Positions 988 to 22,235 of a DNA stretch of 64,000 bases are shown here, one piece after another (within the stretch, counting starts at the first letter, position 1; each line of letters opens with the position of its first letter). The DNA lies in the IMG/VR virus record IMGVR_UViG_3300028797_000009, positions 1 through 64,000 of that record; one strand, given 5' to 3'. Source of the stretch: a virus (taxonomy: Duplodnaviria > Heunggongvirae > Uroviricota > Caudoviricetes). The position numbers and the translations under genes were made by a program. Below the pieces are notes generated by a model. It saw only the letters and a list, made by a program, of their open reading frames with translations. It was not told the origin of the DNA and did not search any database.

Positions 988-1989
988 TCAAAAATTGTTT
1001 CGATATTTGAGGTAGATTTTGTTCGTGAATGTTCTAATCCTGCCTTTGCGAAGGTTGTATATCTGGGATTTGTCGAATTTATCTATCTCGGATGTGCCAA
1101 GTTCTTTGTCTGTAAGTTTAGAATATTTGTCGTAAAGATGATAAAGTCGTTTTGTTTCGGTGTGGATTTTGCTGTCTAATTCGTTTTGCCAAGAAAGCAT
1201 TTGCTTCATAAATTCATCGGGAATATCTAAGTCCTCAACACGACCACCTTTATAGCAAAGTTCCCATACTCGATTTTTAGTGCAATCTGAAATCATACGG
1301 TGCATATTTAGGAACCATTCGGTTTTGAGTTTTACTCTATCTTCGGTGTTTTGATTAAAAGCAACGACTCCTTCGACTTCCATTGTGAGATATTTTTTAG
1401 CTTGTTCGAATGTAAATTTTTGTGCAATTTCGAATGGGCAATTGGTAGGGTTGGGGATAACTTCGTGCCCGTTTACCCGCATAGCCCAACAGACTAATCT
1501 AGGGGTTGGATGTTTAGTGACTATAATTCCAGCATCTTCTTCAAAATTCTGAAGTAGTTCGCAAAAGTATTCAGTATTTTCCTGTAATTTGCCTCTAATT
1601 TCGTCCGTGATGAAGTTTTCAGCGAAAAAGGTATATTTATTACAGAATGAACCTCGGGATGAGGTTATAAGCCCATAATGGCTGTCTTTTTTAATGGAAA
1701 TATAGTATCCGTCTAGTTTTTCGGATATAACACAATTTTTTAGGTCAAGATGGGGAGCAAATTTTTCTGAAGCATTAAAGAATTTTTTAGGACCTTGGAT
1801 AATTATTTGGTTGTCGTCAGAAATAACTAGCCCTCTGGTGTGAATGGTAATATTATCCCATTTCTCCTCCCATGTTGTTTTTTGGGTGTAGTTATAGATG
1901 GCGATAGGTAAATCAGGATGATGGGATTTGCGAATATATCCTTTGTCGCAATAGTCGGATAGTTTAGTGAAGAACTCCTGATTAAACAT
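988..1989 (-). CDS. ATP-dependent polynucleotide ligase family (probable RNA ligase)
   Basis: 333 aa. Covalent nucleotidyltransferase motifs: I SEKLDGYY (KxDG), III TEYFCELL, IV EGVVAF, V VKLKTEW. Size and order fit Rnl-type ligases. Confidence 0.6.
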   Translation of the reverse strand: MFNQEFFTKLSDYCDKGYIRKSHHPDLPIAIYNYTQKTTWEEKWDNITIHTRGLVISDDNQIIIQGPKKFFNASEKFAPHLDLKNCVISEKLDGYYISIKKDSHYGLITSSRGSFCNKYTFFAENFITDEIRGKLQENTEYFCELLQNFEEDAGIIVTKHPTPRLVCWAMRVNGHEVIPNPTNCPFEIAQKFTFEQAKKYLTMEVEGVVAFNQNTEDRVKLKTEWFLNMHRMISDCTKNRVWELCYKGGRVEDLDIPDEFMKQMLSWQNELDSKIHTETKRLYHLYDKYSKLTDKELGTSEIDKFDKSQIYNLRKGRIRTFTNKIYLKYRNNF

Positions 1990-2552
1990 TAACCCTCCGA
2001 GTTGTATTTTGTGTATGCGTTTTGTGCGTCATTGTATGATTCAACCATATTGGCTAATTTTCTACTGCCAGCAAAGAGGTTTACATATCTGTCATAAATA
2101 ACCTGCATACGATTGAGATGGAATTTCCATTCGATTTCTTGTCTTTGGGCTTTAATGTATTTGGGTTGAGTTTTTACCCAACATTCACGGTCCTTGGCTG
2201 AACTAAGTCCGAGATTTTCCTTTTCCTCATTACAAATTTTCCATAACTCTGCAAGAATGGTTGCCGTATCTAATTTCGCATATTCATATGAACGTTGAAG
2301 TTTGGCGAGGAATAGACCTGCCTCGGCAATCATATCTGGGTCGTGGGAAAGATGGAAACGAATATCCTCTTCAGAGAAAGATTCAAAATCACCATTTCGA
2401 ATTGCTTTGAGCATCACTTGTTGGGCTTCCTCAACCTTTGTGACATATTTTTGGAGTCGCTCAATGCGTTTCTGTTCCGATTCGGTTAAAACAGGCTCTT
2501 CGATTCGTGAGGCGATTTTGAGTGCTTCAACTTGGGGTAGTTTCGTTTCCAT
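1989..2552 (-). CDS. hypothetical protein
   Basis: 187-aa ORF; stop/start overlap with the upstream ligase gene suggests translational coupling. Confidence 0.5.
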   Translation of the reverse strand: METKLPQVEALKIASRIEEPVLTESEQKRIERLQKYVTKVEEAQQVMLKAIRNGDFESFSEEDIRFHLSHDPDMIAEAGLFLAKLQRSYEYAKLDTATILAELWKICNEEKENLGLSSAKDRECWVKTQPKYIKAQRQEIEWKFHLNRMQVIYDRYVNLFAGSRKLANMVESYNDAQNAYTKYNSEG

Positions 2553-2561
2553 ATAACTCCT

Positions 2562-3107
2562 TTACCAACTTGCTCTATAAATAAAACTGGTTGACCAATC
2601 GTCTTTTTCCTCCAAGTATGGAGTGAGATATTTAACGGTTGATTCTAGGTCTTGGAGATAATACTCATCGTACTCGGTAGAGCCGAAGAAAAATCCAGAT
2701 GTGGTTGGGAGTAAATCTTCTGCTTCAGTAGTATCTTTTAAGTATCTTACGGTTTCTTGTTTCTCCTCGTTAGTGAGAATGTCTTTGTAGGTGATTTCTT
2801 TTTTGGCGATATTTTCCTTATTGTTAAGAATTCTATTGCACCTTGCGACTAATTCCATTAAGTCTGCTCTTGACACATATATATCTTGGCATTCATCAAC
2901 TCCCTCTCCGCAATGCTGTATAAAGAAGTTATGAATTTGGTTTGCTTTTCGCCAATATGCAATTTCTTCTTCGACATATCTAACTTTTTTAGTGTCAACT
3001 TGGTTTTCTGTCTCGAAGCCTTTTTTATGGAGTTTGATTGAAAACTCTAACTCCTTGTCATAAGGCGAGATGTAAGTTTTTTTATAAAGATATGAGTCTA
3101 GTCCCAT
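2562..3107 (-). CDS. hypothetical protein
   Basis: 181-aa ORF, first gene downstream of the minus-strand promoter at 3139-3169. Confidence 0.5.
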   Translation of the reverse strand: MGLDSYLYKKTYISPYDKELEFSIKLHKKGFETENQVDTKKVRYVEEEIAYWRKANQIHNFFIQHCGEGVDECQDIYVSRADLMELVARCNRILNNKENIAKKEITYKDILTNEEKQETVRYLKDTTEAEDLLPTTSGFFFGSTEYDEYYLQDLESTVKYLTPYLEEKDDWSTSFIYRASW

Positions 3108-3138
3108 TTTTTTATCCTTTCTTTTACTTTGATATTTT

Positions 3139-3169
3139 GATTATATATGAAAATTGACTATACTTCAAG
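3139..3169 (-). promoter_or_regulatory. sigma70-like promoter of the conserved family (minus strand)
   Basis: Reverse complement: TTGAAGtatagtcaaTTTTCATATATAATcaaaat ... AAAGAAAGGATAAAAAAATG. Confidence 0.45.
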
Positions 3170-3706
3170 TAGTTTTTTGAATTTTTCTTGGATTTCTGGG
3201 TCTGGGTATAATCTTTTTACTATATAAGCGAGGTCATCATCTTTAATATCTGGGTTGTAAAGGAGAAGGTCGCACCAATCTCTTTCGGTGATGAAAAATC
3301 CCCATTGGGTTTGAGCAATAATTTCCGGGCTTAATTTTTCTGCCACTTGGAGATGGTGTTTTTCTCCAAAAGATTTACATTCCACAAAACCGTCTGAATT
3401 GACAAGTCCATCTGGTGAATAACCGATATTGGAGAATTTGTCGTTAATGATAAATCCAGCATTGTAGATTGGAGTATATACTTCTGAATAAATTTCTTTT
3501 GAGTCGGCTTCTAGGATGTGCCCACGATATGTCCAATAATTTCCTCTGAAAGAATTTTCGTTTTTGGCTTTTTCTTCGAGGATTGATTGAGGGGAATGAC
3601 CTCGCAAAAGTTTAATAGCGTCTGTGCCAGTTAAGTATTGTTTGCGAAGGTTGTGCCACTCTTGTGAACCTTGTTTAACCTCGTCCTCTGGGATGATGTT
3701 AATCAT
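3158..3706 (-). CDS. YqaJ/lambda-exonuclease-like PD-(D/E)XK nuclease
   Basis: 182 aa. N-terminal QGSQEWHNLRKQYLTGTDAIKLL is typical of YqaJ-type viral recombination exonucleases. DGLVNSDGFVECKSF gives the D..E.K catalytic triad. Confidence 0.6.
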   Translation of the reverse strand: MINIIPEDEVKQGSQEWHNLRKQYLTGTDAIKLLRGHSPQSILEEKAKNENSFRGNYWTYRGHILEADSKEIYSEVYTPIYNAGFIINDKFSNIGYSPDGLVNSDGFVECKSFGEKHHLQVAEKLSPEIIAQTQWGFFITERDWCDLLLYNPDIKDDDLAYIVKRLYPDPEIQEKFKKLLEV

Positions 3707-4328
3707 TTTTCTTTGCTTTCATCCTAGCGATTAACTCGGCTTTACGGTTTGAACTATCTTTAATAATTTGTTCCGCTTCCGAATCGGTGAATTCTAGATT
3801 ATTTAAGTCAACATCAAGTTCTGGATAATATTGTTCAATAGCCATTTTCTCCCAATCTTCCGTTTTGTATGGGTTAGCAAAATCTGGAAGTTTTGGCTCC
3901 GTTGCGAAAGTCTTGAATTCGGTTAATGGGTACCATTGATTTGGGATATAGTAGAGATAACGACCAATGCCAAACTGAACTGCCGCCCTCTTTAATGCGT
4001 CCGAACAACCACCTTTGAATGGGGTGACTTTCTCGGTGTATTCGCCACCATCTGATTTTGTAATCCAAGTTCCGTCTGGCATACGAATACTTAATTCGCA
4101 AACTACACCTTTTTCGTATGGTGTCATTTTACATTGCCAGCCATTGATTCCGCAGACATCATCTAGTCTTTTTTGGACTTCACGGGAATCAATATAGAAA
4201 AGGGCGATTCCTTTTTTCTTATCTTTTGATGTAGCACCGACACGATATTTTACAAACTTCGGGTCGAATGGGTTTTTGAGCGCTTTGAGTAGTGCTTGCT
4301 CTGCTGTTAATTTTTCCGTTTCTTTCAT
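3699..4328 (-). CDS. Single-strand annealing protein, Rad52/Sak-like
   Basis: 209 aa. ALFYIDSREVQKRLDDVCGINGWQCKM resembles the Rad52/Sak core. Paired with the exonuclease immediately downstream, as in two-component recombinase modules. Confidence 0.5.
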   Translation of the reverse strand: MKETEKLTAEQALLKALKNPFDPKFVKYRVGATSKDKKKGIALFYIDSREVQKRLDDVCGINGWQCKMTPYEKGVVCELSIRMPDGTWITKSDGGEYTEKVTPFKGGCSDALKRAAVQFGIGRYLYYIPNQWYPLTEFKTFATEPKLPDFANPYKTEDWEKMAIEQYYPELDVDLNNLEFTDSEAEQIIKDSSNRKAELIARMKAKKND

Positions 4329-4459
4329 CTTGGTTGCCTCCTTTATTTTGTTTCTATTATAAAGTATTTTTGAAAATTTGTAAAGTTTAAGAGAAAAGCG
4401 TAAGTTGAATTATCTCTGTTAATCATTTATAATGGGATAAAGTAAGTGGGAGGTAAAAA

Positions 4460-5263: not shown

Positions 5264-5288
5264 AATTTAAGGAAAGGAGATAAAAGAA

Positions 5289-5861
5289 ATGGATAAGAGT
5301 TTGGAATTAAGAGATAAAATCAACGAAAATGGGGATTTGATTGTTGATAAAACTGAAAATGGTGGCTTGATTACGGAAGTCGTGAAGTATGGTGTAATTA
5401 AGTTTTATGGTGATGATAAAGAATATCGAGTATCGTATAAAACTTTGTGGGATATAACGAATAAGCCAGAGAATTTTAAGGGGAATATTGTAATCCCAGA
5501 ATTGCATATGAAAGTTCCGTTGAGTAGTATTTGTTTCCAACAAATTCGTGAAGAGAAGAATATTATAAAAAAATCGTTCACTAAATTGCCGACAGAGGAT
5601 TTTGTATGTTTGGCTACGGAAGTTGGAGAAGAATTTAAGCCAGCAGGATTATCTGAGCGTGAAGCAAAGAAGAAAATGGATGAGTATTGGTTAATTCAAG
5701 CACATTATATTGAGCAAAATGGGGTTAAAAGATTCGATTATAATTTTAATCATGTTAAGTCGGCTATATTGGTGAGGTGTGTGGAAGATGGTGTTTTTGC
5801 CGTGAGTAAATCGTTTTCGTATGGTGAAGAAATTATGAGTAATGGGCTTGATAATTTATGA
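5289..5861 (+). CDS. hypothetical protein
   Basis: 190-aa ORF with a GGAG RBS upstream. Confidence 0.5.
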   Translation: MDKSLELRDKINENGDLIVDKTENGGLITEVVKYGVIKFYGDDKEYRVSYKTLWDITNKPENFKGNIVIPELHMKVPLSSICFQQIREEKNIIKKSFTKLPTEDFVCLATEVGEEFKPAGLSEREAKKKMDEYWLIQAHYIEQNGVKRFDYNFNHVKSAILVRCVEDGVFAVSKSFSYGEEIMSNGLDNL

Positions 5862-5994
5862 AATTTTAGTTATAATGGAAACATAGTAGATATGAAAATA
5901 TTTGCTCGCACATAAAACTTAAACATCAATCAAAATTCGTGGCCTAGGTTTTGTTAATCTGACCTAGGGTAAAAATAAAAATTCTTCACTATTA

Positions 5995-7372: not shown

Positions 7373-7564
7373 ATGTCAAAAACATCAGAATATAAAGCGT
7401 TAATTAAAATGGTCGAGAAAGACGGGTGGTATCTGATAAGGGATAATGGGCATAAACAGTTCAGGCATCCCATAAAGAAAGGAAAAGTCACGATACCTCA
7501 TGATATTACGAAAAATATCAAAATGTCAGTTCTTAAACAGGCTGGTTTATGGAAGAGGGGATGA
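7373..7564 (+). CDS. hicA: HicA-family mRNA interferase toxin (orphan)
   Basis: 63 aa: KALIKMVEKDGWYLIRDNGHKQFRHPIKKGKVTIPHDITKNIKMSVLKQAGL matches the HicA/YcfA signature. Strong aaaggagg RBS and a TATAAT-like box upstream. Confidence 0.65.
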   Translation: MSKTSEYKALIKMVEKDGWYLIRDNGHKQFRHPIKKGKVTIPHDITKNIKMSVLKQAGLWKRG

Positions 7565-7723
7565 TTTAGTATAGACGGCATACGAAGTTCCTAAATGAAA
7601 ATCGCTTCGAAAAAAAGTTTAGAGTAGTATGTTGGACCCGAAGGCAGTTTTCGGCATCTCCACCATTGTGATATAATGTAGAAGCAAAACTATTAGCAAC
7701 CAATTTATAATTATGGAGAGTGT

Positions 7724-7761
7724 GGCTCTTTGAGCCTGCTCTCCTTTTTTGTGGAGGTTTT
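7724..7761 (+). terminator. hairpin plus T-tract (terminator or attenuator)
   Basis: ggagagtgtggctctttgagcctgctctcc followed by ttttttg; it overlaps the ATG at 7720 reported in the ORF track. Confidence 0.35.
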
Positions 7762-8235
7762 ATGAGTTATAGAACAAGGGCTAGGAGATTGGCGACTAAT
7801 AACAGAGAGTATATAAACTACTCACTAGATGGTTTAGGGAAGTGTACTTTTTGTAGTCCTCACGGTGGGGATAATTGTGGCAACCGTTCTCTGTGGGGGA
7901 AAAAGGTGGCAATGAAAAATTATTATAGAACAGGTAAAAAACGAAAGGAATATCCGAAATATATGCGAAAATGGTATGACAAACATTATATGAGCGAAGA
8001 AGATAGAGAGTATTATCGAAGGCGAGATAATCAGTATTACGATGTAAATAAAGGTGATTTGGCTAGCGCTCTTGATGGTTTATGTAAATGTATAAAACGG
8101 GAAAAGAATTATTATTCCTCATCTTTGTTTAATAAGTTTTACTCGAACTATGATAAATCTGGCTCAATCTATATGGAGAATGATATTCTTAATGTCACAA
8201 TTACTTTTTCAGCTAAAAGGAAAAAGGTGGTTTGA
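7762..8235 (+). CDS. hypothetical Cys-rich protein
   Basis: In-frame part of ORF 7720..8235. I prefer the ATG at 7762 (ggagg RBS; it follows the hairpin). Contains a CTFCSPHGGDNCGN cysteine cluster. Confidence 0.4.
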   Translation: MSYRTRARRLATNNREYINYSLDGLGKCTFCSPHGGDNCGNRSLWGKKVAMKNYYRTGKKRKEYPKYMRKWYDKHYMSEEDREYYRRRDNQYYDVNKGDLASALDGLCKCIKREKNYYSSSLFNKFYSNYDKSGSIYMENDILNVTITFSAKRKKVV

Positions 8236-10262: not shown

Positions 10263-10584
10263 TAAGTTGCAAACTACTGTTTTAATTTTAGAAAAATTGT
10301 CCGAAGAAGAGATAGAATTTATCGAAAATAATAAACTGGTTCATTTTTTGTTGGTTAATCAGGATAATAACTTAAATTTTAGTAATGTGTTGTATGTTCG
10401 GGAAGGCTATTCTCCTGATAACTTAAAAAATATAAATTATTGCTTTTATCGTGGGAATGATAAAAATGTATTGTTTCCTGTTCTTTCTTCAGGAATTTCT
10501 GTAATTGATGATTTGTCTAAAATTGGAGAACAGACTAGTCTAGAAAGAATCGATAATTTTGAGTTGGCTACCTCTATTGTTTGA
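10222..10584 (+). CDS. hypothetical protein
   Basis: 120-aa ORF. Confidence 0.4.
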   Translation: MERTQYWKNVLTYNKLQTTVLILEKLSEEEIEFIENNKLVHFLLVNQDNNLNFSNVLYVREGYSPDNLKNINYCFYRGNDKNVLFPVLSSGISVIDDLSKIGEQTSLERIDNFELATSIV

Positions 10585-11209
10585 CACCAATATAAATAAA
10601 AACTACAATCAAATTATGGAATATCTAGTATTTGATATTAAGACCGAACAACATCTAAAAAATGTGAAAGCTAGTCTTGTAAATATGACTCCTGAATTTA
10701 ATAGCCAGACGAATATTTTAATTTGTGTGGAAGATGAGAGTTTATTCTTGGATGTAAGGAGTGTTAGAGAATTCTTGGTGCCAGGGTTGTATGGTGAAAT
10801 TTTAATCTCTTTTACTAAAAATTTTGTAGATGAAGTTAAAGAAAATATCCTTGGAGCAAATGGGGATATTATTTTTATAAAACCAGAGCATGTTTTAGGT
10901 TATGGGGCTTACAAGAAGTTCTTGTTGGATAGTATGGTTTATAAGTATGGTCTTATCGCTTGCCAAACGCATAATAAGTGCTTAAAATCTGATGATTTGT
11001 ATGATGAGTTAAATATTCACGAAGAAGATTTGAGCGAGTCTGTTTCTAATGGTGTGTATTATATTGATAATACTAAGGATTGTAGTTTTATGATTAAGGC
11101 AGAAAATTTACGGTATTGGTTAGATGATGGTAATCTAGGTATCTACTTAAAACGGTTGGGGTATCAGAATTATGTCGATAAAGATATACCCGTCAAGGAG
11201 GTAAAATAA
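10559..11209 (+). CDS. hypothetical protein
   Basis: 216-aa ORF. Confidence 0.45.
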   Translation: MSWLPLLFDTNINKNYNQIMEYLVFDIKTEQHLKNVKASLVNMTPEFNSQTNILICVEDESLFLDVRSVREFLVPGLYGEILISFTKNFVDEVKENILGANGDIIFIKPEHVLGYGAYKKFLLDSMVYKYGLIACQTHNKCLKSDDLYDELNIHEEDLSESVSNGVYYIDNTKDCSFMIKAENLRYWLDDGNLGIYLKRLGYQNYVDKDIPVKEVK

Positions 11210-11211: not shown

Positions 11212-12084
11212 ATGCAGAAAATCATAATGTTGAAAGGATTGCCGGCTTCGGGGAAGAGTACTTGGGCTAGGCAAATGGTGCTGGATAATACCTCATTTGT
11301 GAGGGTTAGCAAGGATGATATTAGAAAAGATTTCTTGGGGGCTTATTCACAAAAGAAAGAGAAATTAGTCTTAAAATTGCGGGATTGTATTATTTTAGAA
11401 TCATTGAAAAACAAAAAGAGTGTGATTGTAGATGATACAAATTTGAACCCTATTCACGAGGAGCATTTAAGACAACTAGCAAAAGAAAATAATGTTGGGT
11501 TCGAGGTGAATGAATCCTTCCTAAAAGTAAGCCCAGAGGAGTGTGTAAAAAGAGATTTGGGCCGTCTAGATTCGGTTGGGGAAAGAGTCATTTATAAGAT
11601 GTATTATGATTATCTTGCCCCTGACCCGATTGTAAAAATTGAAAAAAGCAAAAAACCACGCTGTGTAATCTGTGATATTGATGGGACTTTGGCTCATAAT
11701 TTGAGTGGAAGAAATATCTATGATTACAGTCGGATTAAAGAAGATACCCCTGACCCATTGGTCTGTGCTGTGATTGACGCTTTGGATTTTACTTTTGGTG
11801 AGGATTATTTAGATATTATTATTGTTTCGGGTAGGGATGATTCCTGTCAACAAGAAACAGAAGAATGGTTAGAGAATAATGATATTCCTTATACCGCCCT
11901 GTTGATGCGTGAAACTGGGGATAAGAGAGATGATGCTGTTGTAAAAGAGGAAATCTATCATAAATATATTGAGCCGAATTATTGTGTTCTTGGCGTGATT
12001 GATGATAGGAATCGAGTAGTGCGTAAATGGGAATCGTTAGGCCTTAAAGTGATGAAGGTAGGAGGTTTATATAATGAGTTCTAA
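11212..12084 (+). CDS. pnk: Polynucleotide 5'-kinase / 3'-phosphatase (T4 Pnk-like)
   Basis: 290 aa. N-terminal P-loop LKGLPASGKSTWARQM is the kinase part. C-terminal HAD motif CVICDIDGTLAHN (DxDGT) and later VSGRDD form the phosphatase part. Architecture matches T4 Pnkp. Confidence 0.75.
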   Translation: MQKIIMLKGLPASGKSTWARQMVLDNTSFVRVSKDDIRKDFLGAYSQKKEKLVLKLRDCIILESLKNKKSVIVDDTNLNPIHEEHLRQLAKENNVGFEVNESFLKVSPEECVKRDLGRLDSVGERVIYKMYYDYLAPDPIVKIEKSKKPRCVICDIDGTLAHNLSGRNIYDYSRIKEDTPDPLVCAVIDALDFTFGEDYLDIIIVSGRDDSCQQETEEWLENNDIPYTALLMRETGDKRDDAVVKEEIYHKYIEPNYCVLGVIDDRNRVVRKWESLGLKVMKVGGLYNEF

Positions 12085-12280: not shown

Positions 12281-12498
12281 GAGATAAGAAAACAAAAAAA
12301 GAATTTGTCCGGTATTTAAGAAACTGTAAAAGTCAGAGATTTTTTCAGGCAGTAGTGAATTTTACGAAGGAAAATTTGGACTCTGATATAAAATCGGTTT
12401 ATGCTGGGAAAGACACGGTTTCTATGACGGGTAAAATCGGGAATAAATACGAGGATACATTTTTTTGGGAGTGTGATGATAAACTCGGAAGAAATTGA
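12259..12498 (+). CDS. hypothetical protein
   Basis: 79-aa ORF. Confidence 0.35.
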   Translation: MARGMGIRDKKTKKEFVRYLRNCKSQRFFQAVVNFTKENLDSDIKSVYAGKDTVSMTGKIGNKYEDTFFWECDDKLGRN

Positions 12499-13198
12499 TG
12501 TTGTTTATGTATTCAAAAATGTAGGCAGCACAGAGGAGTTGAAATATTCTATTCGTTCCGTTGCTGAAAATTGGCCTCATAGAAAAATCTGGATTATCGG
12601 GGATAGACCAATCTGGATTAATGATAATGTGGGTTTTATTAGGACTTATGGGAATAATAAAAATCGGTACAGTGATGTGAATAGTAAACTTCGGTTCGCT
12701 TGTAGGGATAGGAGAATTTCGAATCCATTTTGGTTGTTTAATGATGATTTCTTTATATTGGATAAAATGGATGTATCTTCCTATAAAGTGTTTTATGAAG
12801 GAACATTAGAAGAAAAAGAACAAAGATTGAGGAATAAGTTCCCTAGTTTGAAGACTTGGAGGTATGTTGAGGGGTTTCCTTATGCTAAGAAGGTGCTTAA
12901 AATTAATAAATGCTCCTCATTCAAAAATTTTGAAACCCACGTCCCAATGTTAATTTATAAGAAGGAGATGAAAAAAGTTCTTGATGCTTATCCAGATTGC
13001 GTATGTCGTAGGTCTATTTATATGAATTTGTATCATCAAGACGAAGGCGAGCCTCATTGTGATGTAAAGAGATATGAAAAAAATAGCATAGTGAGGATGG
13101 ATGACGTGCTTGTTTCGACTGACGAAAATACATTTAAGGGGCAAGTTGGAGATTATATAAAAAATAAATTTAATAAAAGGAGTATATATGAACGATAA
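12473..13198 (+). CDS. Stealth-family-like sugar-phosphate transferase (putative)
   Basis: 241 aa. DVVYVFKNVGS resembles Stealth CR1. EELKYSIRSVAENWPHRKIWIIGD resembles CR2 (ELRYSLRS..PW.RKI.IVT). FETHVPMLIYKK resembles CR3 (THxP). Confidence 0.4.
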   Translation: MMINSEEIDVVYVFKNVGSTEELKYSIRSVAENWPHRKIWIIGDRPIWINDNVGFIRTYGNNKNRYSDVNSKLRFACRDRRISNPFWLFNDDFFILDKMDVSSYKVFYEGTLEEKEQRLRNKFPSLKTWRYVEGFPYAKKVLKINKCSSFKNFETHVPMLIYKKEMKKVLDAYPDCVCRRSIYMNLYHQDEGEPHCDVKRYEKNSIVRMDDVLVSTDENTFKGQVGDYIKNKFNKRSIYER

Positions 13199-14443: not shown

Positions 14444-15070
14444 ATGAAAAGTCTTAAAGACGTTAAGATGGGTTGGGTAGCAGTTACCGCCATCGTTTCT
14501 TATGCGATTATCGCCGTGGTTACGGATATGTTCGCAAATAAAATGTTAAACATAGGTGGTCTAACCCTTGCTGGTGGTATTCTTTTGATTCCATTCAGTT
14601 TTACGATTAGGGATTTGATTCACAAGCAAATTGGCTTCAAGAATGTGAAGAAGGTAGTATGGGTTACTGCTTTAGTAAATCTTGTAGTAGCAATTTTGTT
14701 AATTGTTTTGGATTTGATTCCATCGGCGGTTCCTGGGCAACAGGAAGCATGGCATTCCCTTATGGGTGCTTCGTGGCGAGTAATTATTGCGTCATTTATT
14801 GCTCAGTTAGTGGCTGACCTTGGTAATACCTATGTCTATCAATGGGTGTGGGATAAATTAGGTAATAAACATGTATGGTTGAGAACTGTGGTTTCTAACC
14901 TTCCAGCAACATTCTTGGATTCAGCATTGTTTAGTTATATTGCCTTCTTGGGTGTATTGCCAGCAGATATTATCTGGGCTTCGGTGTTAAGTTCGTTCTT
15001 GGTAAAGTATGTGTTGTCGTTAGTAGCAACTCCGTTGACATATTTGAGCGAAGATAAAAAGAAGAAATAA
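14444..15070 (+). CDS. YhhQ/DUF165-family queuosine-precursor (preQ0/preQ1) transporter-like membrane protein
   Basis: 208 aa, multi-TM. DMFANKMLNIGGLTLAGGILLIPFSFTIRDLIHKQIG resembles the YhhQ core. It sits directly upstream of the queC/dpdA genes. Confidence 0.5.
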   Translation: MKSLKDVKMGWVAVTAIVSYAIIAVVTDMFANKMLNIGGLTLAGGILLIPFSFTIRDLIHKQIGFKNVKKVVWVTALVNLVVAILLIVLDLIPSAVPGQQEAWHSLMGASWRVIIASFIAQLVADLGNTYVYQWVWDKLGNKHVWLRTVVSNLPATFLDSALFSYIAFLGVLPADIIWASVLSSFLVKYVLSLVATPLTYLSEDKKKK

Positions 15071-15095
15071 AACTAACTAATCTGGGGTATAATTT

Positions 15096-15368
15096 ATGGA
15101 TATTTTAGAAATTTTCGGTTTATTGGCTACGATTACGGTGTTCGTATCGTTTTTGCCAAAAAATATTAAGTTTATTAGATGGGCGAATTTAATTGGAAGT
15201 GTCTTTTTCGTAATCTATGGTTTCGGGATTGGTGCTTTTTGGACGGGCTTTATGAATGCTTGTTTGATTTTCGTTCAGTTGTATCATCTATTTAAGATTT
15301 ATAAAGGAGAGAAAAAGTGCCAGGCAAAATCAACTCGCTCTCGGAAGAAGAGCAAAAAAGTTATCTAA
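15096..15368 (+). CDS. small membrane protein (hypothetical)
   Basis: 90 aa with two hydrophobic helices; overlaps the next gene by 52 nt. Confidence 0.35.
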   Translation: MDILEIFGLLATITVFVSFLPKNIKFIRWANLIGSVFFVIYGFGIGAFWTGFMNACLIFVQLYHLFKIYKGEKKCQAKSTRSRKKSKKVI

Positions 15369-15694
15369 ATAATACTTATGGGATTTCCTCAATTAAATTA
15401 TATGAGGAGATTCAACATAAATGCCCTCTTGGTGAGCAAGTAGGTGTCACAAAATATGAGATGACAATTCGCCCAGGTAAGAAGTTGGCTGAATTTATCG
15501 CTCTCCATTGGGAGATTCAAGAGATGATGGGACAAACCTTTACGCTTGAAAGTGGTGCGGCGAGAGTAATGGAAATTGTTAAAAAGTATTATTCAGACGC
15601 AAAAGAGATTAAAGTAAAAGCATCCTGCCCAACGAATAGGCATATGGCAGTTGATGTAGAAGTGGAATATAAGAATGAAAGTTCAACTTTATAG
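15317..15694 (+). CDS. QueF-like T-fold protein (possible QueF-L type)
   Basis: GTG start with aaaggagag RBS. HKCPLGEQVGVTKYEMTIRP lines up with the QueF CP.TGQPD...IEYIP region, but the E(S/L)K(S/A)hK NADPH motif is absent, as in QueF-L. Confidence 0.3.
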   Translation: MPGKINSLSEEEQKSYLNNTYGISSIKLYEEIQHKCPLGEQVGVTKYEMTIRPGKKLAEFIALHWEIQEMMGQTFTLESGAARVMEIVKKYYSDAKEIKVKASCPTNRHMAVDVEVEYKNESSTL

Positions 15695-16382
15695 TGGGGG
15701 GATGGATTCTTGGTTAATTAGCCATTTATGGAAGCCAGACTTAAAAATCTATATTGATATTCATGGGGATTATAGCGAGGCAGAAAAGAAAAGGTTGCCG
15801 GATGATGTAAAGATTATCGATATGCCACTTTTGGGGGAATTTGAATTACCAAACAAATTCGTTCCGTTGAGAAATCTCTATTTTATAATGATTGCTTCTC
15901 ACTATGGTGATGAGATTTGTCTTGGAGCAACTGCTGGTGATGGTAGTAAAGATAAAAATCTCGACTTTTTGAATTATATGGAAGATTTGCTCAACTTCTT
16001 CTGGAATGATAAAAAAGTTCATAAGACACTAAAAGTTGAGAAGAGATTTGCGAAGATGAGTAAGGGGGAGATTCTTCGGGAGTATCTAAAAATGGGTGGT
16101 TCGATTGAGGATGTGAGGAGAGAGTCTTTCTCTTGTTACACCCCTATTGATGACAAAGAGTGTTTTGATTGCTATCCTTGTTTCCGTAAGTTCGCTATGC
16201 TTCTTGCGAATGGTTGCGAGTATTCAGATGAAGAAATGGCGAAGATGTGGGATTTTGTCCAAAGAAAAATTATCCCAACAAAAGAGGAAGGCGGGTACGA
16301 AGGTACTTACTATACTGACCGTGGAGAAGAAAGTAAGGATTTGATAAAAGCAGTTGAAATGCTTAAAGAAAAGTATGCCTAA
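15675..16382 (+). CDS. queC: 7-cyano-7-deazaguanine synthase QueC-like
   Basis: 235 aa. PP-loop VQLYSGGMDS. C-terminal zinc-binding cluster CYTPIDDKECFDCYPCFRKFAML (four Cys, as in QueC). Confidence 0.7.
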   Translation: MKVQLYSGGMDSWLISHLWKPDLKIYIDIHGDYSEAEKKRLPDDVKIIDMPLLGEFELPNKFVPLRNLYFIMIASHYGDEICLGATAGDGSKDKNLDFLNYMEDLLNFFWNDKKVHKTLKVEKRFAKMSKGEILREYLKMGGSIEDVRRESFSCYTPIDDKECFDCYPCFRKFAMLLANGCEYSDEEMAKMWDFVQRKIIPTKEEGGYEGTYYTDRGEESKDLIKAVEMLKEKYA

Positions 16383-16710
16383 AATCGTAGCGATAGATTA
16401 TGATGATACCCTGACGGAGTATAGGCCGTTTCCAGAAACTGCTCCGTTCAGGGAAGAGGTGTTCGATTATATCCCCTTGCTAGCCGAGAAATACACGCTT
16501 GTATTATGGACGGCTCGTGAGGGGGTTTATTATGATGAATGTGTTAAGAGATTAGAAGAAGTCGGACTTTTAGATTATATTCAGTTAGATAATGATAAAT
16601 TCAAACACGGTAAAACTGGGAAAATTGTAGCCGATTACTATATAGACGATAAAGCCCTCTTTGGTATAATTGACTGGAAAGAAATTTATGAATATCTGAT
16701 GGAGGTTTAA
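16354..16710 (+). CDS. small HAD-superfamily phosphatase-like protein
   Basis: 118 aa. Motif I IVAIDYDDTLTE (DxDxT); later VLWTAREG. Confidence 0.4.
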   Translation: MKCLKKSMPKIVAIDYDDTLTEYRPFPETAPFREEVFDYIPLLAEKYTLVLWTAREGVYYDECVKRLEEVGLLDYIQLDNDKFKHGKTGKIVADYYIDDKALFGIIDWKEIYEYLMEV

Positions 16711-17531
16711 TGCTTTTATTCTTTGCTGGGGCTGAGGGGGATGATTTTGTAAAAATACTTCGGGATAATGGTGTTACTAATGCTCTCGAAAGTTTTTGGT
16801 CTCTAAAAATGAAGAACCCATGTCATCATCGTATATTTGAGAATCATCTGTTGGATTCGGGTGGTTTTGCTGCTAGGCAGCGTGGTGTGGAAGTTGATGT
16901 CGTAAAGTATGCTGAATATATTAAAAAATATGATGTGAAGTTTGCGTTTAATCTGGATGTGCGTGATTTAGATATTAGTTTGGCTAATCAGCGTTATTTA
17001 GAGAAGAATACTAATGCGTATATTATTCCGATTTATCACGGTCCGGAATGGGTGAATGAAGATACTAGGGATTTGTTGGAGTATTATATCGAGTTCTATC
17101 CATATATCGGGCTTGGTGGTATTGCTGGGAAAGAAACTGGTAAGCAAAATTTGGAGAGGTTTCTAAATTATGTGTTCAAGAGGACTAGGGACAAAACTAT
17201 GGTCCACGGCTTAGGTGTTACAAGTAAGAGGATGTTATATAATTATCCATTTGCGACTTGTGATTCTACGAGTTGGCTTGCCGTTAGCCAATATGGGAGA
17301 AGTGCTGTATATAGCGAAAATATGAGCAGGGTTCGTAACAAGCGTTTGAATTGGAAAGAGCGTATATTTGATGATGTTGTCTTTTATAAAAATTTGAATG
17401 ATGAGATTACGAGAATTTGGAAGAAAAGAGGGGTAAATTGGGGGGATAAATTAGACTATGAAAAATTAATTTCTATGAGGAAAGAAGCACCAAGTTATAG
17501 AGAATGGAAAGAAGGAAGAAATGCGAAATAA
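16710..17531 (+). CDS. dpdA: tRNA-guanine transglycosylase-like protein (DpdA-like 7-deazaguanine DNA transglycosylase)
   Basis: 273 aa. HLLDSGGFAA matches the TGT catalytic DSGGFQ motif; YIGLGGIAG matches the TGT substrate-pocket GLAVGG. No CxCxxC..H zinc site, as in phage and bacterial DpdA. Confidence 0.6.
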   Translation: MLLFFAGAEGDDFVKILRDNGVTNALESFWSLKMKNPCHHRIFENHLLDSGGFAARQRGVEVDVVKYAEYIKKYDVKFAFNLDVRDLDISLANQRYLEKNTNAYIIPIYHGPEWVNEDTRDLLEYYIEFYPYIGLGGIAGKETGKQNLERFLNYVFKRTRDKTMVHGLGVTSKRMLYNYPFATCDSTSWLAVSQYGRSAVYSENMSRVRNKRLNWKERIFDDVVFYKNLNDEITRIWKKRGVNWGDKLDYEKLISMRKEAPSYREWKEGRNAK

Positions 17532-18123
17532 AGATTTTGACCCGAGTAGGATAAAAAAGGTTTCAATTGATGATGTAGAACCCAACGATTATAATCCGAA
17601 GAAGAAGGATACGGCTGAATATAAAAAGATTGTGGAATCATTAAAATTGAATGGTTTGAAGCAACCTATTTTTGTTAGAGAAGTCGAAGAAAATGATAAA
17701 TATGTCATCGTTGATGGCGAGCAACGTTGGACAGCGGCGAAAGAGTTGGGGTATAAAGAAATTTATATCTACGATTTTGGGTATATCTCAGAAGAAGAAG
17801 CAAAGGCATTGACAATCTGGATGGAAGTCCAGGTGCCATTTGATGAGTTAGAATTGGCTACTTTAATTGTTGAGATGAAAGATTTAGATATTGATTTACC
17901 GTATACCAAAAAAGAGATTGATGATTTTGTGGCTATGGCTGATTTTGATTTCACTACGCCTGTTAAGGAGGCGAAACAGGATGATGGTTTAATGGAATTA
18001 AAGATTCGAATGACTAAATCCCAATTTGATTTCGTAAAAGATTGTGTAGATAAAGTGGCTAAAAGTAAAAATTGCGAGCAAGCAGAAGCCCTGATGATTT
18101 TGTGTGGAGGTGTAGATGAATAA
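17521..18123 (+). CDS. ParB-like nuclease-domain protein (DpdB-like?) paralog 1
   Basis: 200 aa. IFVREVEENDKYVIVDGEQRWTAAKELGY is the ParB/Srx GxxR-box region. Confidence 0.55.
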   Translation: MRNKDFDPSRIKKVSIDDVEPNDYNPKKKDTAEYKKIVESLKLNGLKQPIFVREVEENDKYVIVDGEQRWTAAKELGYKEIYIYDFGYISEEEAKALTIWMEVQVPFDELELATLIVEMKDLDIDLPYTKKEIDDFVAMADFDFTTPVKEAKQDDGLMELKIRMTKSQFDFVKDCVDKVAKSKNCEQAEALMILCGGVDE

Positions 18124-18733
18124 AGATTTTAACCCAGAGAATATTAAAAAAGTTCCAATCGAGTTGATTCACCCGAATGGATATAACCCAAAAGCAGTTG
18201 AGAGTAAAGAATATTATGATGTTCTTGAAAGCTTGAAACAAAATGGGTTGATGAGTTTTATTTTTGTTCGAGAAGTTGACGGGATAGATGGGTTCGAGAT
18301 TGTAGATGGTGAGCATAGGTATTTAGCCGCAAAAGAATTAGGTTATAGCGAGATGTATATTTATAATCTTGGTAGAATTTCCGAAGAAGAGGCAAAAGCC
18401 CTGACTTTGTGGTTTGAAGTTCAAGTTCCGTTCGATAATGTCGAGTTGGCTCCGATTGTGGTCGAGCTGACGAAATTGGATATTAAATTGCCTTATACAG
18501 AAGAGCAAATCGAAAAATTCTCCGAATTGCAGAAGTTTGATTTTGACGACTATGATGAGGATGAACCCGTAAAAGAAGAGGAAGGATTTAATAATTTTAC
18601 GGTTAGGGTAACGCAAGAACAGTTCAATTTTATTCAAAATAAAATTAAAGAAGTTATGGATTTTGAGGGGGTGAGCGAAGGGCGAGCGTTGGAATTGATT
18701 GTCGCCGATGGATTCGCAGGGTTTGAAGAGTAA
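18116..18733 (+). CDS. ParB-like nuclease-domain protein paralog 2
   Basis: 205 aa, clearly paralogous to the previous gene (IFVREVDGIDGFEIVDGEHRYLAAKELGY; identical domain order; acidic C-terminal tail). Confidence 0.55.
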   Translation: MNKDFNPENIKKVPIELIHPNGYNPKAVESKEYYDVLESLKQNGLMSFIFVREVDGIDGFEIVDGEHRYLAAKELGYSEMYIYNLGRISEEEAKALTLWFEVQVPFDNVELAPIVVELTKLDIKLPYTEEQIEKFSELQKFDFDDYDEDEPVKEEEGFNNFTVRVTQEQFNFIQNKIKEVMDFEGVSEGRALELIVADGFAGFEE

Positions 18734-18743
18734 TTAATCTGTA

Positions 18744-18772
18744 AAAACCACCATTTTAGGTGGTTTTTTGTT
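18744..18772 (+). terminator. rho-independent terminator
   Basis: aaaaaccacc atttta ggtggtttttt. Confidence 0.65.
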
Positions 18773-18782
18773 GGAAAAGTAT

Positions 18783-18810
18783 TGATTTTTTGCGAGTTTT
18801 GATTTATAAT
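18783..18810 (+). promoter_or_regulatory. conserved-family promoter plus leader
   Basis: TTGATTttttgcgagttttgaTTTATAATgAAAATGGGGGAAG...AAAGAAAGGAAAAATATG. Confidence 0.5.
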
Positions 18811-18847
18811 GAAAATGGGGGAAGAAAAATTAAAAGAAAGGAAAAAT

Positions 18848-19189
18848 ATGGACAATATATTAAATGCTTATGCGAGAGTCCCGGCAATAGCAGAAGAAAT
18901 TGGCTACGAGATGAAAACAACTTGGTGGGGAGATTTTACGGTAGCCGAGTTAATAGATGGCGAGAAGGGTATTAAAGATACATTTAATCGTGCCTGGAAG
19001 TATTGGAGAGATGATAAAGTTTATACAACCGAGTTGTCGTTGGTATTGAATTGGAAGTCTTGGTATTGGGCAGAGAAAAACGCAAAATTAAGCCAGTTAT
19101 ATGTTGAATTATGGCATAAAATTGACTCTTATGTTCTAGATAATTGGAAAGGCGAAGATTTGAAGTATTATCTTCGAACAACCGATTAA
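18848..19189 (+). CDS. hypothetical protein
   Basis: In-frame part of ORF 18809..19189. The ATG at 18848 follows the family RBS AAAGAAAGGAAAAAT. Confidence 0.45.
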   Translation: MDNILNAYARVPAIAEEIGYEMKTTWWGDFTVAELIDGEKGIKDTFNRAWKYWRDDKVYTTELSLVLNWKSWYWAEKNAKLSQLYVELWHKIDSYVLDNWKGEDLKYYLRTTD

Positions 19190-19213
19190 AATCTAAAAAA
19201 TCCTCAGAAAAAG

Positions 19214-19243
19214 TCTTGATTTCTGGGGATTTTTCATATATAA
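19214..19243 (+). promoter_or_regulatory. conserved-family promoter plus leader
   Basis: cTTGATTtctggggatTTTTCATATATAATaAAAATGGGGGGAGGAAAGATAATAAAGAAAGGATATAAAATG. Confidence 0.5.
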
Positions 19244-19284
19244 TAAAAATGGGGGGAGGAAAGATAATAAAGAAAGGATATAAA

Positions 19285-19503
19285 ATGAAAACAAAGTTAG
19301 TTTTAGAGATTAATGCGAATGAGGGTTATAGTATTAATCAAGTTAGTGGAAGAATAACGGTTGGTGATTTGAAGCGTTATTTGGAAGATGTAGATGATGA
19401 TGTAGAAATTGTCACAAAAGATTTGAATAATAGTTATGGCGCCGATTGGGGTGTGGTTTGTGATTATTATGAAGAAGATGCTGATAAAGAGGAAGAATAT
19501 TAG
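19285..19503 (+). CDS. hypothetical protein
   Basis: In-frame part of ORF 19144..19503; ATG chosen from the family RBS. Confidence 0.4.
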   Translation: MKTKLVLEINANEGYSINQVSGRITVGDLKRYLEDVDDDVEIVTKDLNNSYGADWGVVCDYYEEDADKEEEY

Positions 19504-19514
19504 AAAGGGTTGTC

Positions 19515-19775
19515 ATGAAACATATTAAAAGTATCTATTTTCATCCAGGTGGGGATAATGAAGAGTATTGGGAGCTTCAAAATAAGGTGATGAAAGAAGG
19601 TAAATCAATTCTTGGGTTCTTTAAGAATGAAAATGGCGATAAAGAAGATTGGTATGCAGGTGGGTGGCACGGTGATTTTCTAGTAGGTATTTATAGGTAT
19701 AAAGGCAAGGTTTATTGTCTTGAAGATGATATGGAATATGGAATCCCTTATTCGATTCAAATTTGGAGCAAGTAA
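19515..19775 (+). CDS. hypothetical protein
   Basis: 86-aa ORF. Confidence 0.4.
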   Translation: MKHIKSIYFHPGGDNEEYWELQNKVMKEGKSILGFFKNENGDKEDWYAGGWHGDFLVGIYRYKGKVYCLEDDMEYGIPYSIQIWSK

Positions 19776-20122
19776 TGATTGATAATGCGTTGCCGATAGA
19801 TTATCCAGAGTTTATTCCTGCTGAATTTGGTGAGGATAAAATTCTGGTAGTAGATGATGGGGATTATGTCGTGGATGAATATGGTCATCTATTAGAAATT
19901 ACGATTGGCAATAAAAGATATGCCGAATCGGATAAATATTATGACCAAGAAGTAAATGTTCATTATTATCGAGCAAAATATCTAGGTAATAAGGATGATT
20001 GTCTAGGATATGCTAATCAAATAAGAAAAGCGACCAAAGAGGAGGTTAAAAAGGTAAAAGAATGGCTTTCGGGGGGTATTAAGTATAAAGTAATGTCTAA
20101 TGGGCAATTATCGTTTATTTAA
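19763..20122 (+). CDS. hypothetical protein
   Basis: 119-aa ORF. Confidence 0.4.
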   Translation: MEQVMIDNALPIDYPEFIPAEFGEDKILVVDDGDYVVDEYGHLLEITIGNKRYAESDKYYDQEVNVHYYRAKYLGNKDDCLGYANQIRKATKEEVKKVKEWLSGGIKYKVMSNGQLSFI

Positions 20123-20131
20123 GGAGGTTAT

Positions 20132-20521
20132 ATGAGGGAAATTACAGCGAGAGAGTATAGAGAGTGTATAAACACTGCTTTGAAAAATAAAGATGGTGTA
20201 GTCTATTTTAAGCTAGGTAAAACTAGTAAAGGCCAGACGATTGCTTTGGTTATCGGTTGGGAAGTTGGCTACGAATGGGGTGAGAGGTATCAGATTAGGG
20301 ATTTTTCCGGAACGGTTTATACGCTTGTGGGTAAAATTGCCGTGAATACTGATGATTTACAATGCGACTATGATTGGGATTGGATGATGCCTTGGAATAA
20401 AGATAACGATATTTATGATACGAATGTAGCAATTGATGATACTGTTACACAGTTAGAGTGGTTCCAAGATGAAGCCGAAATTATAGAGAAAATGCTTAGA
20501 GATGGGGTATTATTTGTCTAA
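20132..20521 (+). CDS. hypothetical protein
   Basis: 129-aa ORF with a ggagg RBS. Confidence 0.45.
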   Translation: MREITAREYRECINTALKNKDGVVYFKLGKTSKGQTIALVIGWEVGYEWGERYQIRDFSGTVYTLVGKIAVNTDDLQCDYDWDWMMPWNKDNDIYDTNVAIDDTVTQLEWFQDEAEIIEKMLRDGVLFV

Positions 20522-20568
20522 AAACCTCAAAAAAGTGCCAATTTTGCCTAAAAAATCCAAAAAACCTA

Positions 20569-20598
20569 TTGATTTTTCTTGACTTTTCATATATAATG
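20569..20598 (+). promoter_or_regulatory. conserved-family promoter plus leader
   Basis: aTTGATTtttcTTGACTTTTCATATATAATGAAAATGGGGGAAGGGGGAAGATAAAGGTAAAAAGAAAGGAAAAATATG. Confidence 0.5.
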
Positions 20599-20643
20599 AA
20601 AATGGGGGAAGGGGGAAGATAAAGGTAAAAAGAAAGGAAAAAT

Positions 20644-20883
20644 ATGGAAAATCGTTTTAAGAAAATAGTTAAAATGATGGAAGAGCAACTTGTTGACGAG
20701 ATTATGGAAAGTGTCGAGTTGCAAGGTTTGGAAAATGAAGAAGAAATCCAAGAATATTTGGATGACGGATTTTATAGTTCATCATTTGCTGAGTTTTGTG
20801 AAGAGAATGGCGGTGATTTGTATTTTTCGGCGGTATGGAAAAATAATAAGCCTTATGTAAGCGTTTCGGCTTGGGGCGAGTAG
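20644..20883 (+). CDS. hypothetical acidic protein
   Basis: 79-aa ORF. Confidence 0.4.
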   Translation: MENRFKKIVKMMEEQLVDEIMESVELQGLENEEEIQEYLDDGFYSSSFAEFCEENGGDLYFSAVWKNNKPYVSVSAWGE

Positions 20884-21005
20884 AAAGGGTAAATTATGGT
20901 AGTTATAGCAAGGAGTGAAATTAAAAGAATGGAAAATCATATCCTAGATGAAGAAACGGGTATGACCGAATTAGATGCTTTTGAAGCAAATCATTGTTAT
21001 GAGGA

Positions 21006-21257
21006 TTGGCAAGTGATAGAAGATATGGAGGCAAAATGAGTATAAGTTTGCGAGAAGTATTTGAAAATGCAGGTTTCGATATAACTAAAAATATCGAAGA
21101 TGCTAAGTGGCTTTTAGGGAAGAAGAGGGAATTTGAAGAGTTAATCGAAGAGGCAGAAGATTTGAGGGATGCGTATGATGAATATATCGATTATACATTG
21201 GAATGGGATTTAACCCCATATTCGTTTGAAGAATGGTTAGAAAGGAGAAAGAAATGA
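21006..21257 (+). CDS. hypothetical protein
   Basis: 83-aa ORF. Confidence 0.4.
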   Translation: MASDRRYGGKMSISLREVFENAGFDITKNIEDAKWLLGKKREFEELIEEAEDLRDAYDEYIDYTLEWDLTPYSFEEWLERRKK

Positions 21258-21499
21258 AAGAATTCAAAAATTGGCACGATATTCAAGATTGGGCAAAGGA
21301 AAATGGTTTCAAAAATATCGTGAAAAGGATGCAGATTAATAATGATTGTTGGATGTCATCTGGCGAATTTGGTAGGAGCCAAGTTCAGATTTGTGATGCT
21401 TTGAGGTTTGCCGATACGGAGGATGAGCGTCTAATGATTGCTGAAAAGATTGAAGAGGATTTGGAATCTGATTTTGTGACAACTGGTAAGTTGGCATAA
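21254..21499 (+). CDS. hypothetical protein
   Basis: In-frame part of ORF 21233..21499; ATG at 21254 follows aaaggagaaagaa and overlaps the upstream stop in an ATGA arrangement. Confidence 0.4.
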   Translation: MKEFKNWHDIQDWAKENGFKNIVKRMQINNDCWMSSGEFGRSQVQICDALRFADTEDERLMIAEKIEEDLESDFVTTGKLA

Positions 21500-21557
21500 A
21501 AAGTATTGAACTTATGCTAGTTAACATTTATAATATTAATTAAAAAGGAGGTAATTA

Positions 21558-22235
21558 ATGGGAACAACTAAACAAGGTGCTTTTGAGATGAAATATCATC
21601 ATATCGATGCACCAACAAAACAAGATGATGAATATGGCCGAGAACATCATAAAAGGATTTTAAGTCTTAATGATTTCCGAACGCCGTTATTAGAATATTT
21701 GAGCGATAAACCGTGGATTATGAAGCGTAAATTGGATGGCGAAAATTTGCGTGTTATGTGGGATGGCGAGCAAGCATTGTGGAATGGTAAAAGCGATAAT
21801 TTCCAATGTAGTTCGGCTTTAACGGATTATATGAATAATACTTTTCTTGAAGAAGTTTTTGAGGAAAAGTTTGGTCGAGATAAGCGAGTTTATATCTTCG
21901 GTGAGCATATGGGTCCGAAGTCGCAGGGGAATGAATTGGGATTAGGAAATAGTGAATGTGTTATTTATGATGTAAAGGTTAATGGCACTTGGTTAAAACC
22001 ATTGGATATTATTAGTGTGGCAGGGTATTTTGGGTGTAAAACTTGCTACGATTTTATGGGTGATATTCCAATGGATTTGAGTAAGACATTATCTGAGTAT
22101 ATTGCCGAGGTGTCCTCGGGGATTTATAAAGATTGGGAGGGGATTGTTTGCGTCCCATTAGTAGAATGCTGTTATCCAACAGGGGAGCGTGTGATTTGTA
22201 AGATTAAAAATAAAGACTATTTGAAAAAGGATTAG
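21558..22235 (+). CDS. Minimal ATP-dependent ligase-family nucleotidyltransferase (RNA/DNA ligase-like)
   Basis: 225 aa. Motif I MKRKLDGENLRV (KxDG), III RVYIFGEHMG, IV WEGIVCVP, V ICKIKNKDY. aaaaggagg RBS. Confidence 0.55.
   Translation: MGTTKQGAFEMKYHHIDAPTKQDDEYGREHHKRILSLNDFRTPLLEYLSDKPWIMKRKLDGENLRVMWDGEQALWNGKSDNFQCSSALTDYMNNTFLEEVFEEKFGRDKRVYIFGEHMGPKSQGNELGLGNSECVIYDVKVNGTWLKPLDIISVAGYFGCKTCYDFMGDIPMDLSKTLSEYIAEVSSGIYKDWEGIVCVPLVECCYPTGERVICKIKNKDYLKKD

Follow-up and report, generated by a model that had tools for sequence, protein, structure and literature searches.

The window analysed here, a stretch of 64,000 nucleotides (positions 1 to 64,000 of the virus record IMGVR_UViG_3300028797_000009), is phage DNA from an uncultivated phage of ~85 kb with a G+C content of ~37%. 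It encodes three proteins homologous to enzymes of RNA repair: an Rnl1-family ATP-dependent RNA ligase of 333 amino acids (988-1989, minus strand), a polynucleotide kinase/phosphatase of the T4 Pnkp type of 290 amino acids (11212-12084, plus strand) and a small Rnl2-like RNA ligase of 225 amino acids (21558-22235, plus strand), together with four tRNA genes (30658-30973). The coordinates of these three open reading frames (ORFs) had been given exactly by a first-pass annotation of the sequence, which read them as an RNA-repair toolkit directed against tRNA-targeting nucleases. We favour, with moderate confidence, a T4-type “heal and seal” RNA repair pathway composed of Pnkp and the Rnl1-family ligase, with the small ligase as an independent accessory. 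When the first 24 kb were searched by megablast against 50,697 phage records, no match was returned, so that no annotated close relative could be used; the identification of the enzymes was based on family profiles, whose matches are far better than expected by chance, predicted folds and catalytic residues.

Both the concept and the gene combination have already been described, in T4 and in other phages (PMC7824862), and what we present is a textbook reading on a new, divergent phage lineage. It extends the T4 healing-and-sealing set to uncultivated metagenomic phages of ~80-86 kb and adds comparative support for the paired action of Rnl1 and Pnkp, through their adjacency in many viral contigs. 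The only departure from described families is the second ligase, composed of a nucleotidyltransferase domain alone, which is mildly novel and a modest lead; its practical interest is that it is inexpensive to express and bears on whether Rnl2 and Rnl5 truly need their accessory domains.

Pnkp and the Rnl1-family ligase

The Pnkp protein aligns end-to-end with the T4 Pnkp structure 1ltq (E 2.5e-36, residues 1-283 on 1-296) and also matches Capnocytophaga Pnkp1 (4xrp, E 1.8e-31), HAD_PNKP (PF25109, E 8e-41), the P-loop kinase family AAA_33 (E 1e-16) and phrog_505 (E 5e-87). The earlier claim that it combines a kinase P-loop and a DxDGT phosphatase motif as in T4 is borne out by GLPASGKST at amino acids 9-17 and DIDGT at amino acids 155-159. 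Moreover, alignment with the T4 protein from NC_000866 showed that all essential residues are kept, comprising K15, S16, D35, R38 and R126 of the T4 kinase domain (R126 being R118 here) and D165, D167, R176, R213, D254, D277 and D278 of the phosphatase domain, the last five of which correspond to R167, R208, D241, D264 and D265. By homology and catalytic residues, 11212-12084 is a full-length, bifunctional T4-type polynucleotide 5′-kinase/3′-phosphatase, for which both activities are predicted. The architecture is that of T4 pseT and, as with pseT and rnlA (gp63) in T4, the kinase/phosphatase and ligase genes are separate within one genome. The homology to Capnocytophaga Pnkp1 recalls as well the bacterial Pnkp/Hen1 and Pnkp1-Rnl-Hen1 systems, which follow the same healing-plus-sealing logic. 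In a PADLOC search the kinase domain gave one weak match to VakA (E 0.0023) and neither ligase was matched. For the ORF at 10559-11209, whose stop lies 2 nucleotides ahead of the Pnkp start codon, no family was detectable, and it is not kept beside Pnkp elsewhere.

The larger ligase is composed of a nucleotidyltransferase domain followed by a predicted all-helical C-terminal domain. Taken alone it scores 29.5 bits against PF09511, barely over the cut-off of 28.3, and matches phrog_562 (E 4.7e-29). When either ligase was searched with phmmer as a single sequence against the PDB nothing meaningful was found, and family profiles were needed to reach T4 Rnl1 and Rnl2. Many metagenomic homologues of the larger ligase were available, 320-375 amino acids in length, including one that is 100% identical, on contigs up to 85.7 kb. 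A profile built from 33 members gave significant PDB matches to T4 Rnl1 entries only (2c5u, E 9e-13, T4 residues 38-326). Residues R54, K75, F77, K99, G102, K119, E227, G228, K240 and K242 of T4 Rnl1 correspond to R52, K69, F71, K91, G94, R112, E206, G207, K220 and K222, and these catalytic positions are invariant across the 33 members, which are 38-77% identical to the window protein. The essential residues are thus shared with T4 Rnl1, with a conservative change of K119 to arginine, in a protein that is shorter than the 374 amino acids of the T4 enzyme.

Motifs I, III, IV and V had previously been assigned to both ligases. Motifs I, IV and V are present in both (KLDG, with K91 in the Rnl1-like protein and K58 in the small one, EG(V/I)V and KxK) and motif III is present in the small one (E116); in the Rnl1-like protein motif III (T4 E159) had no automatic alignment, and the invariant E144, which is located in a beta-strand, is its likely counterpart. 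The AlphaFold model has a pLDDT (predicted local distance difference test) of 94. Residues 224-333 are predicted to be all-helical, like the C-terminal domain of T4 Rnl1, the part of that enzyme which confers tRNA specificity. The NCBIfam equivalog model TIGR02308 scored 23.7 bits against a cut-off of 242 and, because this is far under the threshold, the protein is best classified as a member of the Rnl1 family and not as a T4 RnlA equivalog.

The proposed pairing of Pnkp with Rnl1 was found to have a counterpart in the genomes of other viruses. In fact, 20 of 53 other IMG/VR contigs carry a Pnkp gene in the fetched flank of the Rnl1-like gene, and in 19 of these 20 it lies at most ~1.2 kb away on the same strand, usually directly downstream. 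Such adjacency supports, independently of the window, the joint action of the two enzymes, even though the two genes are apart in the window phage and its closest relatives. An 84-kb relative, IMGVR_UViG_3300029305_003710 (contig L006), keeps Pnkp and both ligases at 42-51% amino acid identity.

The T4 homologue allows for a different role. The Rnl1-like protein might serve mainly in the attachment of tail fibres, as T4 gp63 does in its second activity, with Pnkp acting on DNA ends and RNA repair being incidental. Both phrog_562 and T4 rnlA are labelled “RNA ligase and tail fiber protein attachment catalyst”, yet T4 is the sole source of this label. The gene stands fifth of six in a leftward string of early type, which encodes an Erf-like annealing protein, a RecE/YqaJ-like exonuclease, two proteins of no assigned family, the ligase and a 105-amino-acid ORF, whereas the tail genes are far off at 48-62 kb. 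Moreover, the ligase catalytic residues are all invariant in a family of such divergence, and the tight adjacency to Pnkp in many contigs argues for a function on RNA ends. We therefore consider a principal role in tail-fibre attachment very improbable.

A small ligase with a nucleotidyltransferase domain alone

The small ligase falls under the PF09414 threshold (23.1 bits, threshold 27) and matches phrog_548 (E 1.2e-11), and more than 100 close homologues, all 219-255 amino acids in length, mostly carry the PF09414 label. Motifs I (RKLDGEN), III (FGE), IV (WEGIV) and V (KIKNKDY) are invariant in their alignment, and a strikingly conserved N-terminal stretch, M..TKQGAF..YHHIDAPT.QD, belongs to an extension of ~40 amino acids. 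Searched against the PDB, the family profile reached the isolated nucleotidyltransferase domain of T4 Rnl2 (1s68, E 1.6e-4), with no other significant match. The structural model has a pLDDT of 92, and the top matches in both sequence and fold are the nick-sealing RNA ligases Rnl2, NgrRnl and REL1. Residues K35, G38, N40, E99, E204, G205, K225 and K227 of Rnl2 correspond to K58, G61, N63, E116, E194, G195, K215 and K217. The first-pass view of two distinct ligase-family enzymes is thus upheld, one profile leading to T4 Rnl1 and the other to T4 Rnl2; as with rnlB in T4, a second ligase stands beside Rnl1, its nucleotidyltransferase domain being closest to those of Rnl2 and REL1, with the four motifs kept.

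What follows and precedes this domain is different from the known families. The signature C-terminal domain of Rnl2 (~residues 244-334), which is needed for adenylate transfer to the nick, is missing; the protein stops 8 residues past motif V, its profile ends at Rnl2 residue 236, and the conserved N-terminal extension is found instead. Only 57 residues precede motif I, and the N-terminal OB-like module of ~126 amino acids that defines Rnl5 (Deinococcus DraRnl, Naegleria NgrRnl) is absent; a C-terminal appendage is absent as well, as it is in Rnl5. TIGR02306 gave 28.5 bits against a cut-off of 151, over model positions 152-341 only. By the definitions in PMC4408790 the protein is neither Rnl2 nor Rnl5, its sequence resembling the catalytic core of both.

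The possibility that one or both ligases are DNA ligases sealing nicks in phage DNA was considered, and it had been named by the first-pass annotation as the case that would overturn its proposal. DNA-ligase identity was rejected for both proteins. Neither has an OB domain or motif VI, since the small ligase ends just past motif V and the larger one has the predicted all-helical domain in that part; DNA-ligase folds scored lower, and significant PDB matches of the family profiles were limited to T4 Rnl1 or T4 Rnl2. Homology, catalytic residues and predicted fold support RNA-ligase type proteins with predicted RNA-ligase activity, and a DNA ligase at either locus is hardly to be expected.

Nucleotidyltransferase-only proteins of this kind are widespread. 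At E <= 1e-10 an exhaustive search with the small-ligase profile recovered 1,319 cluster representatives, and of the best 150 nearly all have lengths of 200-260 amino acids; most proteins of this single-domain clade are without the N-terminal extension of the window subfamily. The small ligase itself occurs in many phages, and at one locus with bacterial-type genes (sortase and an MMPL transporter; L064), with neither Pnkp nor Rnl1 in the surrounding 10 kb. Isolated phages already annotate such small proteins as “RNA ligase”, for example the 215-amino-acid gene 208 of Streptomyces phage Moab. Our literature searches found no biochemical characterisation of a nucleotidyltransferase-only small ligase, and the clade is apparently large and uncharacterised. 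Of the three ligation steps, truncated Rnl2 and Rnl5 cores perform only some in vitro (PMC4408790), so that the small ligase should be either self-sufficient in a new way or reliant on an unlinked factor.

Perhaps the small ligase is part of a large natural lineage of nucleotidyltransferase-only RNA ligases, an idea that we put forward tentatively and with some doubt. Shuman and colleagues reportedly postulated an “ancestral stand-alone nucleotidyltransferase domain” architecture, which to our knowledge has been studied until now only in the form of crippled Rnl2 and Rnl5 truncations. If single-domain ligases are autonomous and complete, their way of recognising the RNA substrate would be new, and in the window subfamily the invariant N-terminal extension could supply this recognition. 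If this is true, such enzymes could make up a second branch of phage RNA repair that does not depend on Pnkp, or be of use as compact enzymes for ligation.

tRNA genes and the proposed repair pathway

Four tRNA genes had been attributed to the phage along with the repair enzymes, and all of them were confirmed with ARAGORN and Rfam (RF00005, gathering score 29 bits), although they lie outside the span 988-22235 to which they had been assigned, ~8.4 kb past its right end. They are, all on the plus strand, tRNA-Pro (UGG) at 30658-30734 (54.5 bits), a tRNA with the anticodon UAG, Leu by anticodon, at 30744-30820 (55.4 bits, with a cloverleaf alignment), tRNA-Asn (GUU) at 30825-30899 (71.5 bits) and tRNA-Trp (CCA) at 30900-30973 (61.7 bits), and the 3′ CCA is encoded in all four. 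A terminator-like hairpin at 30601-30628 and an extended -10 box, TGTATAAT, at 30641-30648 were read from the sequence ahead of the array and, for this reason, the four genes look like a separate transcription unit.

Some of these tRNAs have unusual features. The tRNA-Pro has a C at position 33 instead of the near-universal U (anticodon loop CCUGGAA), while its homologue in the 84-kb relative (L006:11233-11307) has the normal U33 (CUUGGAA); C33 could represent a nuclease-evading variant, a defective gene or an assembly variant. A long variable arm is the norm in bacterial tRNA-Leu. The tRNA(UAG) has a class I body of 77 nucleotides with a 5-nucleotide variable loop and discriminator A73, its putative Leu identity coming from the anticodon only. 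The 84-kb relative encodes in addition (L006:11311-11395) an 85-nucleotide tRNA in which the Asn anticodon GUU is combined with a Ser-like class II body, having a long variable arm and G73 as discriminator; mischarging or recoding is a possibility here.

In T4, pseT, rnlA and rnlB are annotated for tRNA repair in prr hosts. T4 has tRNA genes as well. The T4 Pnkp-Rnl1 pathway is reported to reverse the damage done by PrrC to tRNA-Lys (Amitsur et al. 1987). Along these lines, metal-independent host ribotoxins, such as PrrC- or RloC-like anticodon nucleases, would leave 2′,3′-cyclic-phosphate or 3′-phosphate ends together with 5′-OH ends. Pnkp would heal these ends, its HAD domain taking off the 3′ phosphate and its P-loop domain phosphorylating the 5′-OH, after which the Rnl1-family ligase would reseal the break in the tRNA loop via lysyl-AMP (at K91) and AppRNA. 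By analogy, the small ligase would most likely seal 3′-OH RNA nicks in duplexes, as an accessory and not an obligate partner of Pnkp. The tRNAs may replace depleted host tRNAs or merely raise the supply. What the enzymes act on, that a host nuclease exists and any cooperation with the tRNAs are matters of inference, and a role in counter-defence is plausible. Combinations of phage tRNAs with Rnl1, Rnl2 and PNK-HAD were interpreted by Iyer et al. 2021 as non-redundant answers to different RNase effectors (PMC7824862); the same combination was described there in jumbo phages, whereas the window phage is medium-sized, to judge from contigs of up to 85.7 kb.

Several observations weigh against such a pathway. 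The genes for Pnkp, the Rnl1-like protein and the small ligase are on two strands in three separate stretches, surrounded by unrelated genes and at distances of 9-10 kb, and form no operon. T4 Pnkp acts on DNA ends too, so that a role in DNA repair is conceivable. A gene for tRNA-Lys, the classical target of PrrC and the tRNA healed in T4, is absent from the set of four. Three of the four tRNAs read codons much used by the phage (CCA, 46% of Pro codons; Asn codons, 6.1% of all codons; and the Trp codon), so that simple supply explains these three equally well. By analogy with Rnl2 and Rnl5, the small ligase would act on duplex nicks and not on anticodon loops, and the isolated nucleotidyltransferase domains of both enzymes are crippled in overall sealing in vitro, with incomplete nick sealing (PMC4408790). 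When ORFs lying within 3 kb of the small ligase at 10 loci were compared all against all, in search of a partner that would provide an OB or C-terminal domain in trans, no conserved neighbour emerged, and in 8 of the 10 loci Pnkp was not found within 10 kb of it.

These points can be accommodated by supposing that the components do not share one function: Pnkp and the Rnl1-like protein may repair tRNA, the small ligase would serve nucleic-acid metabolism, for example at nicks with a ribonucleotide 3′-OH in RNA:DNA hybrids during replication, recombination or repair, and the tRNAs would boost translation. The Rnl2 and Rnl5 families do seal nicks with an RNA 3′-OH strand and accept a DNA 5′-phosphate strand and a DNA template (PMC4408790). 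Elsewhere the small ligase occurs in replication-type settings, right after a helicase (L065) or among helicase and YopX genes (L063), with Pnkp not nearby; its lack of a conserved neighbour and the frequent use of CCA, AAY and UGG codons by the phage fit this explanation as well. Nonetheless, the replication role is conjectural, Pnkp and both ligases are retained in the 84-kb relative together with a tRNA array near the small ligase (eight tRNA genes starting ~500 bp after it and including Trp, Pro-UGG and Asn-GUU), and Streptomyces phages with a small ligase have tRNA genes nearby too. We judge such an unlinked arrangement to be unlikely on balance, and retain the heal-and-seal pathway of Pnkp and the Rnl1-family ligase as the preferred explanation.

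Gene neighbourhood in the window

Of the “toolkit” as proposed, the three enzymes are present, but their genes are dispersed and the span 988-22235 is mostly occupied by unrelated functions, namely the Erf and exonuclease genes, a replication initiator, SSB and a 7-deazaguanine island. The Pnkp gene is on the opposite strand from the Rnl1-like gene, 9 kb off, after replication genes (an initiator or loader and an exonuclease-type subunit of DNA polymerase), and SSB and the DNA-modification island separate it from the small ligase. When the flanking ORFs of no assigned family were scanned with Pfam, PHROGs and PADLOC for Hen1, 2H, RtcB, RlaP and Tpt1, none was found, and RtcB, RlaP, 2H and a CCA-adding enzyme were likewise absent among the ORFs scanned, which were part of those in the window. 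Further to the right are the large terminase (33360-34781) and portal (39895-42966) genes, and the window also encodes tail-fibre-like proteins.

A divergent promoter-like region at 4356-4433, recognised by consensus matches only, has TTTACA-17-TATAAT on the minus strand (4384-4356, 11/12) and TTGAAT-17-TATAAT on the plus strand (4405-4433, 10/12). Its leftward site would drive the string from the Erf-like gene to the Rnl1-like gene and its rightward site the replication genes. A perfect sigma-70 consensus promoter (TTGACA-17-TATAAT) is located at 941-969 on the minus strand, just downstream of the Rnl1-like gene and ahead of the 105-amino-acid ORF (564-881), and several further matches in the window score 11/12. 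The perfect match suggests a host with canonical -35/-10 promoters, and consensus sigma-70-type promoters combined with low G+C give a weak hint of a non-Bacteroidota host.

The 7-deazaguanine DNA-modification island (14444-18733) comprises a YhhQ/Vut_1-type queuosine-precursor transporter (14444-15070; PF02592, E 1e-34), a QueC-like protein (15675-16382), a TGT/DpdA-like transglycosylase without a Pfam match (16710-17531; phrog_887, E 3e-36) and two tandem ParB-like proteins (17521-18733). The presence of a phage-encoded precursor transporter suggests salvage of preQ0, not its full synthesis.

A 63-amino-acid ORF at 7373-7564 bears a precomputed Pfam HicA_toxin (mRNA interferase) label, taken from an identical contig at L001:4426-4617; in the next ORF, 7720-8235, a HicB-like antitoxin was not recognised. 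The window also encodes a Stealth_CR2-like protein (PF11380, a weak match below threshold) and a family-2 glycosyltransferase (12473-13198 and 31969-32697). The two families adjoin each other in an unrelated phage contig that carries a small ligase (L063:17642-19145), and the pair may constitute a module for sugar-phosphate or glycosyl modification. The end of the portal gene is overlapped by that of a protein of 470 amino acids (42929-44341), which weakly matches an ADP-ribosyltransferase exoenzyme toxin family (phrog_3895, E 1.5e-4); like T4 Alt, it may be an ADP-ribosyltransferase that is carried in the virion and injected. Another protein, of 280 amino acids (24242-25084), has a DUF1281_C/Api92-like ferredoxin-like domain (PF18406, E 1e-19).

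Finally, the plus strand, which is the coding strand, showed a very strong excess of G over C, with a GC skew of +0.24 to +0.45 in 4-kb windows across 4001-44000. The skew drops to about 0.1 over the structural genes past 48 kb, and G+C ranges from 33 to 41%.

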